From: a virus
Reading direction: 5' to 3' (one strand)
Length of the DNA stretch: 64,000 nt
IMG/VR virus record: IMGVR_UViG_2044078006_000016
Span: 762-64,761 of that record
Position 1 is the first letter of the stretch. The number at the start of each line of letters is the position of its first letter. The notes below the pieces were generated by a model, which had not been told where the DNA came from, ran no database searches, and was given only the letters and a program-made list of their open reading frames with translations. This document shows, piece after piece, positions 32,694 to 37,678 of the stretch. A program made the translations under genes and the position numbers.

Positions 32694-32945
32694 GTGACTC
32701 GCATAGCTAAGGAGCAGCAAATGGTGATGTCATGCCATGACCCCCGAAGACTCGTTAAGCATATTGAAAATGCATACCCTGATGCCAGTCAGTCTGCGGT
32801 GAATGCGGTCGGAGCCCTACAGTTTGTATTTCCTGATGGCATGGTAATCAACATCTATCCAAAGGGAACCATTCACTTCCAAGGGAAATCCAGCGCCATC
32901 CGGGCGAAAGTGGAAGCTCAAATCTCATTTATTAACAGACGATAG
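32694..32945 (+). CDS. Small antisense moron with TBP-like beta motif (VINIYPKGTIHFQG)
   Basis: 83 aa, AAGGAG SD before ATG 32721, opposite strand to the late operon. Confidence 0.6.
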   Translation: MTRIAKEQQMVMSCHDPRRLVKHIENAYPDASQSAVNAVGALQFVFPDGMVINIYPKGTIHFQGKSSAIRAKVEAQISFINRR

Positions 32946-33039: not shown

Positions 33040-33207
33040 TCATAGGCCTGCATGGTGACCATGGAGCAATCCAATGATCAAGCCTTTAGGAACGCTGGTA
33101 GCCAACGCTGCAGGGGCATCGGCAATAGCCTTGTCGATAGCGCTTACCGCAGTATTGATATCCGGGATCATTGGCGTACTGTGAAGCAGCCGGATGAGGT
33201 TGCTCAG
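33040..33207 (-). pseudogene. Degenerate prophage protein (IDKAIADA...GLIIGLLHGH)
   Basis: Resembles a small Pseudomonas prophage family I recall; the expected start is CTG and the C-terminus is degenerate. Confidence 0.35.
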
Positions 33208-33354
33208 TTGCAAAGCTCGCGTCACGTTTGGGCGCATTCGAAAAATGTGGCGCGTGGGGGACGGCGTACCGTTAGCCGCTCGTCACACCAACTAAACTTT
33301 CTGAGCGCCATTGCCGACCTATATTTAGGTGCAAATAAAAAATTTGGAGCGCTA

Positions 33355-33603
33355 GTGAATAAAGAAGAAATTGAACGAGAGCTTGCCCATGCCGCAAATA
33401 ATTACAGGCAGTTGGCAAGTACCCTCGCAATGATCAAAGGCACTCCACTTGCTCAAGATCCATCTTTCATAGACCAAATTGAGCACCTCAAAGGTGCAAT
33501 GATTGCTCTTCAAGCGCAAGTTCGCCGGCTGAGCGTCCTCGATGGAGCAATGCATAGTCCTGCTCGAAAAGGGAAGCACGCGCTGCACCTCGTCAAGCGA
33601 TAA
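33355..33603 (+). CDS. Small antisense hypothetical (helical)
   Basis: GGAG SD before GTG 33355; C-terminal part of track ORF 33052..33603. Confidence 0.5.
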   Translation: MNKEEIERELAHAANNYRQLASTLAMIKGTPLAQDPSFIDQIEHLKGAMIALQAQVRRLSVLDGAMHSPARKGKHALHLVKR

Positions 33604-33728: not shown

Positions 33729-34046
33729 TCACTGGGGTGCTCGGTTTAGGACTTCGTCCGCTTTGTCGGCAGCTTTGGCAGCAGTCGTCGCAGCCTTCGT
33801 GGCTTGGTCGGCGGCGGTACCGGTTTGGCGGCTCAGCTCTTCTAGGCGCTTGTCGCGCTCAGTCATGGCGGTGTCGTAGGCTTTTCGCATGTCGGTCACT
33901 TGGCTGCTCTGCTTATCAGCGAGCGACCAGTATGCGGCTTGGTAACCCAGTACTGCCCCACCACCCACCAGCACTACAGCAATGCTCCAAACTTCGGCCC
34001 GGCGCCACCAGCGGCGTGCGATAAATTCCAATGCGCATCTGTCCAT
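33729..34046 (-). CDS. Single-TM protein of the holin slot
   Basis: WWRRAEVW + TM + Ala-rich coiled coil; coupled to the upstream gene. Confidence 0.7.
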   Translation of the reverse strand: MDRCALEFIARRWWRRAEVWSIAVVLVGGGAVLGYQAAYWSLADKQSSQVTDMRKAYDTAMTERDKRLEELSRQTGTAADQATKAATTAAKAADKADEVLNRAPQ

Positions 34047-34417
34047 TAGGCGATTCCTCCCAGCTTGGTGCGAAGGCGGGTGATCTCATCGCTCTGCTGC
34101 GTCACGCGGTCAGTGAGTTGAGCTACCTGGCTGGTGAGCGCCTCGATCTTACCTTCCATGCGCCCAACGGCAGCTGCCAGGTCATTCCGCTCCTTCGCGA
34201 ATTGATCGGCGCGGGCCTCGGCTTCTTTGCGAGCGGCGCGCTCCTGGTTCAGCAACTCGTTTAGTCGCTTCAGTGTGCCGATATCGGCGCTGTCCATTGC
34301 TCGGTCAGTCGCATCCTTAGAAAGGAACCGGCGCAGCCATAGCAGGCCGCCCAGTACCACGGTGGCACTACCGCCCAGCCAGGTGGCTGTGCCTGGGCCT
34401 AGGTCAGTAGGGTCCAT
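34046..34417 (-). CDS. N-terminal TM + coiled-coil protein, putative holin/antiholin-slot gene
   Basis: MDPTDLGPGTATWLGG TM; first late gene after pR' and tR'. Confidence 0.65.
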   Translation of the reverse strand: MDPTDLGPGTATWLGGSATVVLGGLLWLRRFLSKDATDRAMDSADIGTLKRLNELLNQERAARKEAEARADQFAKERNDLAAAVGRMEGKIEALTSQVAQLTDRVTQQSDEITRLRTKLGGIA

Positions 34418-34597
34418 CTTCACTCCAAACCGCATTTATTCCCATTCTGGGATTCAATAATTGCATGTTCCGCATCATTCAGAAGCGGAGACAAAAAGAT
34501 ATTTCCACACAAAAAATCAGATAATTCCTACATCAATTTTACTTCGGATAGGGAATATTGACGTCGAAATGAGTAATTGAGCAGAGAGGATCCCCTT

Positions 34598-34792
34598 TTG
34601 TTAGTCATTACTAGAACCCCCAATAAGCGCTTGCGCATAGGCGACGAAATCCAAATCAACGTGGCTAAGGTCGTTGAAGATACCGTGTATTTAGCCCTCA
34701 GCGCACCCGAACGCATATTAATCAAAGCGGTGAGTGGTATTCACGACGATGAAATACCCGAGCATCCGCACGGCGCAGGAGAACTTGTTTGA
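34598..34792 (+). CDS. Divergent CsrA/RsmA-family protein (R44A-equivalent)
   Basis: GAGGA SD + TTG 34598; MLVITRTPNKRLRIGDEIQINV...V.L..SAP aligns without gaps to CsrA ([22 protein letters not shown]...VRIGVNAP). Confidence 0.8.
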   Translation: MLVITRTPNKRLRIGDEIQINVAKVVEDTVYLALSAPERILIKAVSGIHDDEIPEHPHGAGELV

Positions 34793-34848
34793 AACGGGTT
34801 AGCAAGCTGCACTCCCTGCTCAGAGCGAGCGGTAGCAGGGCCGAAAAT

Positions 34849-34875
34849 GAAAAAGCCCAGCGCGACGGCTGGGCT
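34849..34875 (-). terminator. tR'-like terminator downstream of the late promoter
   Basis: AGCCCAG-CCGTCGCG-CTGGGCTTTTT. Confidence 0.75.
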
Positions 34876-34968
34876 CTATTACGCAGGGAGATAGAAGATC
34901 ATAGAGTACAGTATGAGCCGGGCTCTGCAGTGTAAACCCCTAATGCGCAAGATCGATAGGATGAACAA

Positions 34969-34997
34969 ATAATCTCTCATCTTCTCACTCAGTGCAA
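34969..34997 (-). promoter_or_regulatory. Late promoter pR' candidate TTGCAC-N17-GATTAT
   Basis: sigma70-like spacing, correct orientation, followed about 90 nt later by a strong terminator. Confidence 0.6.
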
Positions 34998-35222
34998 CAT
35001 TTTTCGGTTATCAGAATTTTGCGTGCAGCTCCGCCGATTAAAACCTATCCAGGGCTCTCCAAATTTCTGGCAACACCCTTTCGAACGGCAAAACAGTCGT
35101 ATCCGGGGCATGCGCCATACGTGTGATCGGGTCTAACCTATTGGCGATAGGTAAATGGAGTCGTGGGCCTGCAGGGGATCTGATACCGTTTAGCCATATG
35201 GTCGTGATACGCGAGGTTAGTC

Positions 35223-37031
35223 ATGGACGTAAATACCCACTTCCCTGAGTACGAAGCAGAACGCTTAAAACGCGTTGAGGCCCTCTGCCCGCAAAATGAA
35301 CAAGACGACGAAGTCTTCGAAAAAATGATTTCAATGACTTCAGAATACTTCAATGCACCCATCGCCTTGATTTCTATCGTCGAAAAGCACCGCCAATGGT
35401 TCAGAGCGCGGATCGGGATCGACCAGCGAACTACACCTCGGGACGTTTCGTTCTGCGCACACTCTCTACGCGACAGGAAGGCGTTAGAGGTTTTGGATGC
35501 GCAGAATGATGAGCGCTTCAAAGATAACCCCATGGTCACCGGCGCGCCCTTTATTCGCTATTACGCTAGCGCACCACTTCTCACAAGCGACGGTTTCTCT
35601 CTGGGTAGCCTATGCATAATAGATACTTCACCTCGAGAACCAATGAGCAAACAAGATGCAGCAATGCTCGTTTATTTCGCTCAACTCGTTGTCTTGCGGA
35701 TTATGGGTTTACGTTCCCGTAATTTTATTGATCAGCCTACCGGACTTTTCAACCGACTTAGACTGGAAGAAGATATTCGACTAGCAAGCTCTAGTGGCAT
35801 TCAGCACGATCTATTTGCTGTGGACGTAATATCTCCAAAATTTTTGAATGACGTAGTAAAAGCGCTCGGTTACAGCTTTTCTCAAAATTTAATGCTCAAC
35901 GTCAAGGGTAGACTTCAGTCTTTATTACCTAAGAATTCTCTCTTGTACAAAATCAGTCCAACGCGTTTTGGGTTTCTTTTAGAAGGTGGCCAGCCGGTGG
36001 AAGGTCTCTGCCATGAGATTCTTTCAAATTTTGACGAACCGGTTGATTGTCAAGGGATCCCAATACTCATGCAGACAGGTATTGGAGTATTGAAAATCAC
36101 CGATGCAAAAGAGAGGGACTGGCTACGGTTAGTGGTAGGGGCAGCTGATGACGCCAGGGTTCGAAACTTGGGCTGGGCGATGTATCAACCTGAGTTGGAC
36201 GCAGCTCAGCAGCGAGCGTTTGCCTTACTGAGCTCCCTGTCTGATGCAGTTCGATCTGAAGATCAGCTGAGCTTAGTTTTCCATCCAAAAGTCACATTAC
36301 CTACTCTAGCATGTGAAAATGTTGAGGCATTGATCAGGTGGGATCACCCTACACTCGGGCCTATCAGCCCCGCAGAGTTTATACCACTTGCAGAGAAAAC
36401 TGCGTTGATGCATTTAATTACCTTCTGGGTACTTGAGGCCGTAGTTAACCAAGCTAAGGAGTGGCTCAACAAAGGTATTGAATTACGAATCTCCATGAAT
36501 GTCACTGTCAGTGATCTTGAGAATTCTAAGTTCGTAAATAAAATTACAGAATATATAAACAACGGCGCCCTTCAGTCGAAAAATCTAGAACTTGAGTTTA
36601 CGGAAAGCATGCTCATGTCAGATCCGAAGACAGTTATTGAGCAGCTTGAGCGCGCCCGTGCGTTGGGCATTGAAGTTTCCGTGGACGACTTCGGTACTGG
36701 CTACAGCAACTGGACATATCTAAGGCAACTGCCTGTGAGTACGGTTAAATTAGACCAGTCACTAATCAGCAGCCTCAACACGAACGAAAAAGATAAACGG
36801 CTAGTTAAGACACTCATCGAGCTTGCTAGAGGATTAGGCTATAGAGTCGTAGCAGAGGGCGTCGAAACCCAAAGCATTCTGGACCTAATCACACTCTGGG
36901 GATGTTCAGAGGCTCAGGGGTACCTGATAACAAAACCCCTGAGAGCGGAACCATTAGAAACATGGCTGGCGCAAGGTGGTTTCAGCGCGGCATGTGATAG
37001 GACTAAAACGCCAGGCACCGAACCCTTGTAG
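35223..37031 (+). CDS. GAF - degenerate GGDEF - EAL c-di-GMP phosphodiesterase
   Basis: GAF (RDVSFCAH...NPMVTG.P.IRYYA.APL); GGDEF replaced by SPTRF; EAL domain with EAL, N, ELEFTE, DDFGTGYS, K.D, AEGVE, QGY all present. Confidence 0.93.
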   Translation: MDVNTHFPEYEAERLKRVEALCPQNEQDDEVFEKMISMTSEYFNAPIALISIVEKHRQWFRARIGIDQRTTPRDVSFCAHSLRDRKALEVLDAQNDERFKDNPMVTGAPFIRYYASAPLLTSDGFSLGSLCIIDTSPREPMSKQDAAMLVYFAQLVVLRIMGLRSRNFIDQPTGLFNRLRLEEDIRLASSSGIQHDLFAVDVISPKFLNDVVKALGYSFSQNLMLNVKGRLQSLLPKNSLLYKISPTRFGFLLEGGQPVEGLCHEILSNFDEPVDCQGIPILMQTGIGVLKITDAKERDWLRLVVGAADDARVRNLGWAMYQPELDAAQQRAFALLSSLSDAVRSEDQLSLVFHPKVTLPTLACENVEALIRWDHPTLGPISPAEFIPLAEKTALMHLITFWVLEAVVNQAKEWLNKGIELRISMNVTVSDLENSKFVNKITEYINNGALQSKNLELEFTESMLMSDPKTVIEQLERARALGIEVSVDDFGTGYSNWTYLRQLPVSTVKLDQSLISSLNTNEKDKRLVKTLIELARGLGYRVVAEGVETQSILDLITLWGCSEAQGYLITKPLRAEPLETWLAQGGFSAACDRTKTPGTEPL

Positions 37032-37129
37032 TCCATCAAAACCTGTCGGCGGGAAGCCTGTCACCACCTCCCGCCCACCTTAAAGCTGATGTCGCTCAGG
37101 TCATCTGTCCAGTTCATTGCCGCAGCAAA

Positions 37130-37678
37130 TTATGATGCCATGGCGTTCTCCATTAGCCCCTCGGCGTCAAGAATCTCTTGAGCGGCCATCAGCGCCTCAT
37201 TTACCTGGCCATCCAAAGAATTTCGTATGGATGAACGCCAACGATACCGAGTTGACTCTGGCTTGCCGTCATTGTCCCAATTGGTGATGTCATACCAGGC
37301 GGCCGGCAGCACAGTGGCGGAACGTTTGCCCTCGGAACCGGCAACCTGCGGAATAGCCCACGTCAGCACAGCGCACTCACGAAACCGTTTCGGCGCCGGC
37401 GACTTCACCGAATTGAGCAGCTCCAGGATCGCGCCGTGCTTGCGCTCCTCGTGGGTGGAGTACTTGGCCACCAGTGCCCGCCAGTGCGCCGGGGTAAGCG
37501 CCTTATGCAGCCGACCGAATACCCAGCAGTCCTGGAGAAACGCCGCCTCCTTGCCGACGATCTCCCCCTTCTGCTTGGCGCACTGCACTTTGGGCTCGAA
37601 GTCGCAGCCGCCGGCGGAACTGATGGTCTCGGCCGCGAGCGCCCGAACTACTGCTGAAACAACGTTGCGATAGGTCAT
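37130..37678 (-). CDS. Putative late-gene antiterminator (Q slot)
   Basis: Last early-right gene before pR'; C-terminal helical region (W....STRYRWR..I...L); family recalled from Pseudomonas prophages. Confidence 0.6.
   Translation of the reverse strand: MTYRNVVSAVVRALAAETISSAGGCDFEPKVQCAKQKGEIVGKEAAFLQDCWVFGRLHKALTPAHWRALVAKYSTHEERKHGAILELLNSVKSPAPKRFRECAVLTWAIPQVAGSEGKRSATVLPAAWYDITNWDNDGKPESTRYRWRSSIRNSLDGQVNEALMAAQEILDAEGLMENAMAS

Follow-up and report, generated by a model that had tools for sequence, protein, structure and literature searches.

The stretch of DNA analysed here (the window, 64,000 nt) is taken from a provirus record of IMG/VR, for which CheckV gives a completeness of 100. 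On its minus strand the window carries terminase, phage metallopeptidase, spanin-like and hol-like genes, and further to the right follow a 182-aa gene and NinG. Among these late and lysis genes lies a small csrA-like gene on the opposite strand, in keeping with the prophage location that an earlier, sequence-only reading of this DNA had assigned to it. The features of the locus are as follows.

34046-34417, minus strand: hol-like gene for a DUF3450-like coiled coil (PHROG 2658); first late/lysis gene, divergent from the csrA-like gene
34432-34796, plus strand: AT-rich moron-type cassette of ~365 bp, made up of ~165 nt of upstream/promoter region and the CDS
34586-34590, plus strand: Shine-Dalgarno (SD) sequence GAGGA, 7 nt 5' of TTG 34598 and with a GGA inside it
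34598-34792, plus strand: csrA/rsm-like CDS of 64 aa with a TTG start and the stop TGA at 34790-34792; residues 1-42 form the CsrA beta core, residues 43-64 a divergent acidic tail that begins K43-A44-V45-S46
34843-34877, minus (late) strand: intrinsic terminator, a GC-rich hairpin followed by a T-run; putative tR' analogue
34917-34997, minus strand: promoter-like element with TTGCAC at 34997-34992, a 17-nt spacer, GATTAT at 34974-34969 and a conserved initial transcribed region
35223-37031, plus strand: AT-rich moron for a 602-aa GGDEF-EAL protein (Pfam EAL 1.6e-63, GGDEF 3.6e-08; GC 46.9%)

The TTG start of the csrA-like gene is kept in all nine family genes that were extracted; start codon, SD and length (63-65 aa) are conserved in the subfamily, and a purine-rich AGAAGG/AGAGG block recurs in the upstream regions across the family. 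A 71-aa reading from TTG 34577, which corresponds to the NCBI annotation of the homologue from Pseudomonas sp. RGB, was rejected because the upstream TTG is absent from other family members. The 64-aa protein matches the Pfam CsrA profile (PF02599) with 39.5 bits (cut-off 27; E=5.6e-10), and this match spans residues 1-42 only, which correspond to positions 1-42 of the 53 in the profile. Likewise, phmmer against PDB sequences places residues 1-42 without gaps on residues 1-42 of E. coli CsrA (1y00), the alignments to solved CsrA structures all end at residue 42 or 43, and the subfamily profile matches Geobacillus CsrA (5dmb) with E=6.5e-22. The gap-free alignment from TTG 34598 that had been proposed from the letters alone is thus borne out, and the list of kept residues given with it (L2, T5, R6, I14-G15-D16-E17, V22, V25, V30 and A36-P37) is correct. 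By profile comparison, membership of the CsrA/Rsm family is far beyond chance. The NCBIfam CsrA equivalogs TIGR00202 and NF002469 are not reached (35.5 vs 70.1 and 34.8 vs 73 bits, respectively), and the protein classifies as a CsrA-family paralogue, not as a CsrA orthologue.

Beyond residue 42 the resemblance ends. The alignment to 1y00 places K-A-V-S where canonical proteins have H43-R44-E45-E46, exactly as first read, but the description of this difference as a natural R44A substitution holds only in part: Arg44 is indeed missing, yet the change is not a point change, as the end of beta5 and the helix segment differ too. In place of H43, R44, E45, E46 and I47 and of the usual amphipathic helix at the C terminus stand K-A-V-S-G and a tail that is acidic, and a codon-level alignment shows homology of the Ala44 clade to the rest of the family through codon 42 and nothing alignable thereafter. 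At the level of sequence, the event is therefore a replaced or diverged C-terminal segment and not a single-codon R44A. The beta1 residues that contact RNA (L2, I4, T5 and R6) and the beta-strand core are kept. The tail (residues 43-64, 22 residues) is free of Arg, with a net charge of about -4; for the complete protein the pI is 5.45 and the net charge about -3. From an alignment of 25 sequences AF2 produced a model of modest quality (mean pLDDT 66.5) that has strands at residues 11-14, 19-26, 29-35 and 42-45 and no helix; with pLDDT <50 for residues 47-64, the acidic tail is predicted to be disordered. When this monomer model was searched with Foldseek, the top 17 matches were all CsrA/Rsm chains, yet every one had E >=0.14 and a TM of ~0.3, a lack of significance that is expected for the monomer model of an obligate intertwined dimer.

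When 1.84 billion representatives were scanned exhaustively with HMMER, only 18 proteins reached E <=0.001; a profile search raised the set to 25. Named sources are Pseudomonas sp. RGB, P. synxantha, P. palleroniana, P. carnis and Pseudomonas sp. TH34; judged from these names of relatives, the hosts would belong to the P. fluorescens group. I14, I18, V30 and P37 are invariant in the subfamily, and L2, R6, D16, I20, L32 and A36 nearly so. The tails are disordered and mostly acidic, with some basic exceptions (e.g. P0006, ~+5), and are unalignable apart from a DD(x)xP-like patch (LDDSP, LDDAP, HDDEIP, VPDDLP). The subfamily consensus, ~I-V-R-S-E-Q, keeps Arg44, and the canonical helix is already missing from it. 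Position 44 is occupied by Arg in 17 of the 25 sequences, by Gln in three, by Lys and Ala in two each and by His in one, so that the loss of Arg44 read from the present protein does not hold for the wider subfamily in general. In a tree of the 42 core columns alone, at least four changes between Arg and other residues are needed at this position, and several of them separate near-identical proteins (e.g. CGA to CAA between loci L014 and L013). Such repeated changes, some of them between close relatives, indicate that Arg44 is unusually weakly constrained in this subfamily. In a tblastn search with the 64-aa protein, none of 50,697 phage records matched at E <=0.01, and a scan of genome contigs for the protein returned only two distant Myxococcales CsrA genes. 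One provirus contig, IMGVR_UViG_2617271063_000004, bears two different csrA-like genes of the subfamily, both of the Arg44 type (L018 1-192 and L040 ~2655-2850), one in the late-leader slot described below and the other at the contig end.

The nearest relatives of the 64-aa protein are 89-90% identical and all have Ala44, one of them with V45E in addition. Within this Ala44 clade we counted three synonymous and one nonsynonymous change in the core, as against none and six in the tail (Fisher test, p ~0.03). Five of the six tail changes fall in the last ten residues; indeed, residues 43-54 are invariant between the alleles of the window and of L004, and residues 55-64 vary. Nei-Gojobori estimates of core dN/dS are 0.10 within the Ala44 clade and 0.07-0.34 against other clades, at a dS of 0.7 to >1 between the Ala44 clade and those others. 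These values characterise the Ala44 clade as old and its core as subject to purifying selection. An identical 64-aa protein occurs on at least 10 public contigs, and the ORF is intact in 11 Ala44-clade loci, whose prophages differ in replication modules and EAL alleles. Recent decay of an Arg44 gene, which the sequence-only reading had singled out for checking, is hence rejected: the 89-90% identical alleles share Ala44, core dN/dS is ~0.1, dS is large, and intact alleles occur in prophages with different replication modules. The csrA-like gene is real and probably functional.

A survey anchored on the hol-like protein comprised 80 related IMG/VR prophages. Six of them have the csrA-like gene and 74 lack it; carriers invariably have it beside the first lysis gene. 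At four empty sites (L034, L035, L054 and L064) the terminator and a leader of ~60 nt join the SD of the hol-like gene (alignment A4). The boundaries of the cassette are good to ~10 nt, with the right one within a few nt of the stop codon, and its GC content is 43.8%, compared with 56% for the window and 62% for the hol-like gene. Insertion relative to the empty sites, low GC and antisense placement together mark a classic moron, and we read the csrA-like gene as one that was inserted antisense into the late-operon leader of a lambdoid Pseudomonas prophage. Its antisense orientation to the late operon, also part of the first reading, is confirmed by its position between the tR'-like terminator and the first lysis gene.

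Several smaller features accompany the cassette. A hairpin at 34441-34453 (stem TCCC(A)/(T)GGGA) marks the cassette edge nearest the lysis genes and is found only in csrA-bearing phages; its loop differs between cassette types, equivalents exist in L013, L015 and L019, and on the late transcript it would lie ~15 nt 5' of the SD of the hol-like gene. In two relatives the csrA-like terminator region is separated from the pR'-like element by an additional 0.8-1.5 kb (L016 5317-6845, L004 8283-9097), where the window has ~60 nt. Two more plus-strand ORFs antisense to late genes, 32694-32945 (83 aa) and 33052-33603 (183 aa), lie between the metallopeptidase and spanin-like genes and are called as genes in L008 and L010; neither has a significant Pfam or PHROG match, and from their placement they may be further morons.

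The terminator at 34843-34877 is conserved in csrA-less relatives, where it lies directly upstream of the lysis genes. Read on the plus strand, ~60 nt after the csrA-like stop, it may end that transcript also, with a T-tract that is weak in this direction. The promoter-like element is ~80% conserved among otherwise mosaic Pseudomonas prophages. In L013 it abuts a 181-aa gene (PHROG 3412, no Pfam hit) next to NinG, which makes this gene a candidate late antiterminator. From sequence and arrangement we infer that element and terminator form an analogue of the lambda pR'/tR'-type late control.

The second moron of the locus, the GGDEF-EAL gene, is flanked by the Q-side 182-aa gene and the pR'-like element. 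It is present at every Ala44-type locus seen, in combination with three csrA-like haplotypes and as two alleles whose proteins share only 74% identity. The EAL gene occurs at none of the inspected Arg-, Lys- and Gln-type loci and at two of the 74 csrA-less ones; L035 is a natural empty site that still has it. The data are suggestive of a linkage between Ala44 and EAL, in a small sample in which shared descent is a confounder. The gene extends over 9381-11159 in L004, 701-2506 in L035 and 282-2048 in L060, and one of its alleles is annotated with an extra GAF domain. Truncation of the csrA-like gene by insertion of the EAL moron was considered and rejected, since the window and L004 remain homologous for 66 nt beyond the stop codon; the EAL junction in the window is still further on, at ~34858-34913.

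Expression of the csrA-like gene in the lysogen, as first proposed, is weakly supported. In metatranscriptome run X7 a contig of 753 nt (~96.5% identity) covers 34458-34913, with zero depth at the adjacent lysis genes, and the cassette was found in two RNA-type libraries. The contigs are, however, unstranded and come from relatives ~96% identical, with DNA carry-over possible, and neither a sigma70 promoter scan nor a manual hexamer search upstream of the gene found a convincing -35/-10 pair. Runs X1, X9 and X15 (organism A; RNA type only guessed) contain relatives of the EAL gene that are ~90-97% identical over window positions 35177-37339; their homology breaks at 35177, where a different upstream context without a csrA-like cassette begins, so these runs are silent on csrA-like expression. 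Regulatory signals at the RNA level were likewise sought. A structured Rsm-binding leader was rejected, as the 5' UTR folds no better than shuffled sequences (z=0.07), and Rfam gave no hit around the gene at gathering thresholds and nothing meaningful at E <=1. GGA motifs are present on either side of the SD and start of the hol-like gene. In the window as a whole GGA occurs at 1704 sites, fewer than in shuffles and ~1 per 75 nt per strand, a count that is uninformative.

What such a protein might do can be considered in the light of the known architecture of its family. In each RNA site of a CsrA/Rsm dimer one chain contributes beta1 and the other beta5 plus the helix, and Arg44 is essential for RNA binding by CsrA/RsmE (PMC7366521, PMC9928087). 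With beta1 and the core kept and the beta5/helix half missing, a homodimer of the 64-aa protein should bind GGA RNA poorly. In the lysogen the gene would be expressed from a promoter of its own, and in lytic growth antisense late transcription would run over it. The gene product would fold together with RsmA, RsmE or RsmI of the host into mixed dimers, each of which would keep one intact RNA site (phage beta1 with host beta5). One-site mixed dimers would be weaker at two-site (bridging) repression and at binding the sRNA sponges; the effect may be enhanced by weak direct competition for GGA sites, and the protein may act together with the co-resident EAL phosphodiesterase moron. We regard modulation of the host Gac/Rsm network through mixed dimers as the single most likely mechanism, and hold it tentatively, at somewhat less than an even chance.

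A dominant-negative action, the favoured idea of the sequence-only reading, is plausible in this framework, at a strength that several points reduce. Since a mixed dimer would keep one intact site, attenuation and not a null effect would be expected. The conserved TTG start suggests modest translation, which argues against a stoichiometric poison of abundant host Rsm proteins. Furthermore, PMC6715622 describes overexpressed RsmA4 of P. syringae as acting mostly like RsmA2 and RsmA3 (less protease and pyoverdine); an effect in the same direction is unlike that of a dominant negative and counts against the poison model. A bolder form of the mixed-dimer idea would make the Ala44 protein a phage 'anti-Rsm', a dimerisation-competent and RNA-binding-impaired core that co-folds with RsmA/RsmE, partly de-represses the Gac/Rsm regulon of the lysogen and has been selected together with the EAL moron, with the repeated loss of Arg44 reflecting selection for interference and not decay. 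We consider this rather unlikely as it stands; the basis for the co-selection is that the pairing is kept across the two divergent EAL alleles.

Among the alternatives, the one that survives best takes the protein to be an RNA-binding homodimer of low affinity or altered specificity with a small regulon of its own, similar to RsmA4/RsmD of P. syringae DC3000. RNA would be held through the backbone of beta1 and beta5, the part of Arg44 might be taken over to some extent by K43 or another basic residue, and interaction with host Rsm proteins would not be needed. That L2, I4, T5 and the nearly invariant R6 are kept and that K43 adjoins the lost Arg is consistent with this proposal, as is the published precedent: the Arg44-less RsmA4 binds ncsRNAs weakly and gives overexpression phenotypes (PMC6715622, PMC7600136), and compensation by other basic residues is offered in PMC7600136. 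The protein, however, is acidic with a tail devoid of Arg, E46, I47 and the helix are lost along with Arg44, and on structural reasoning residue 43 of the beta strand faces away from the side of residue 44. We thus regard an autonomous RNA-binding role as possible and improbable.

Less probable still is that the protein is incidental, with the cassette acting through transcription that runs head-on into the late promoter/terminator or through an antisense mRNA that damps leaky lysis genes, or else that the gene is a decaying relic. The antisense position between terminator and first lysis gene, the loss of Arg44 at least four times in the subfamily, last ten residues that change freely (five nonsynonymous vs no synonymous changes) and a cassette dispensable enough to be missing from 74 of the 80 related prophages speak for this reading. 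Against it stand a core dN/dS of 0.1-0.35 in every lineage, the Arg-less ones included, the conservation of start codon, SD and length, and the intact ORF at the 11 Ala44-clade loci; we consider this explanation unlikely.

Two further proposals appear quite improbable. In the first, the CsrA-like core and acidic tail would bind a host or phage protein in the manner in which FliW or CesT bind CsrA, or the tail might act as a nucleic-acid mimic that fills the RNA-binding surface of another protein; solved complexes of CsrA with FliW (5dmb) and CesT (5z38), the recurrent DD(x)xP-like patch in otherwise unalignable tails and the invariance of residues 43-54 between the window and L004 speak for such an adaptor, but the cassette has one ORF only and thus no candidate partner gene, some tails are basic, and the tail motif is short enough to be due to chance. 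In the second, proteins of the subfamily would ancestrally bind GGA in the phage's own late leader or in the ribosome-binding site of the lysis gene (UGGAGUGAAGAUGGA) and time lysis, with the Ala44 form weakened, for which the constant slot, the GGA motifs around the SD and start of the hol-like gene and the hairpin confined to cassette-bearing phages can be cited; this idea is very doubtful, as 74 of the 80 close relatives have the same lysis gene and SD without a cassette, GGA is common by chance, and the classic moron slot alone explains the constant location.

The mixed-dimer mechanism finds its closest parallels in mobile and accessory Rsm proteins of Pseudomonas. RsmD (CsrA4/RsmA4, PSPTO_3943) and RsmH1-3 of the P. 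syringae group are, like the 64-aa protein, small CsrA-family paralogues that lack Arg44 (PMC7600136), and they too exist beside canonical RsmA and RsmE and are linked to mobile or phage-like DNA (PMC7600136, PMC6715622, PMC7366521). Either compensation by other basic residues or heterodimers that lower RsmA/RsmE activity has been proposed for them (PMC7600136), and PMC6715622 reports a low affinity of RsmA4 for ncsRNAs. The present protein appears to differ from RsmD/RsmH in its sequence family: TRTPN and TRNPK, motifs diagnostic of its subfamily, are absent from eight supplementary tables of PMC7366521 (Pseudomonas chromosomal and phage Rsm), in which APKHI is confined to a Vibrio phage entry and IGDEIQI to RsmH rows of otherwise different sequence. 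It also differs in structure, since RsmH has a second C-terminal helix and none is predicted here, and in setting, with hosts of the P. fluorescens group and a gene that forms a defined moron within the late leader of a prophage that seems complete.

RsmQ, from plasmid pQBR103 of P. fluorescens SBW25, is a mobile-element Rsm homologue from the same host group and the best plasmid tblastn match from that group (37.7% identity). It reprogrammes host behaviour and heterodimerises with RsmA and RsmE by two-hybrid; its VHRE/D motif is intact, and its binding to GGA/ANGGA is strong and is lost in the R44A and H43A mutants (PMC9928087). In contrast to this plasmid-borne protein, that of the window is prophage-borne and naturally without VHRE/D. 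Phage-linked Rsm subfamilies have been catalogued in PMC7366521; among them, RsmM/Bci of P. aeruginosa temperate phages such as AUS531phi and phi297 shares with the window protein a prophage-encoded CsrA domain (PMC7366521, PMC7546807). RsmM is found only in P. aeruginosa (PMC7366521), and Bci, for which effects on quorum sensing, motility, biofilm, pyocyanin and phage infectivity are reported (PMC7546807), has 123 aa including a C-terminal extension, compared with 64 aa here. Canonical CsrA, RsmA and RsmE (1y00, 1vpz, 2jpp) align without gaps over residues 1-42, at ~33% identity to E. coli CsrA, and their signatures G15-D16, A36-P37, L2, T5 and R6 are kept; unlike them, the window protein lacks H43-R44-E45-E46 and a predicted helix and is acidic overall.

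The idea that Arg44-less Rsm paralogues interfere by heterodimerisation is already in print (PMC7600136), and the principle itself is therefore not new, which limits the surprise. New are the subfamily with motifs absent from the Pseudomonas entries in eight supplementary tables of PMC7366521, its helix-less architecture and the repeated loss of Arg44, as well as the exact anatomy of the moron and a natural allelic series with empty-site controls. In Pseudomonas the Gac/Rsm (Csr) system sets motile versus sessile life, secondary metabolism and virulence or biocontrol traits, and mobile elements, namely RsmQ and RsmM/Bci, are known to tap it. Whether Arg44-less paralogues are dead proteins, weak binders or interfering subunits is a question raised in PMC7600136. 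The prophages described here provide a clean natural test set, with Arg, Lys, Gln, His and Ala at position 44 on one conserved 42-residue core, all alleles in the same prophage slot, and empty-site phages (e.g. L035) that differ essentially by the 0.37-kb cassette. Comparison of these natural alleles would answer that question directly.
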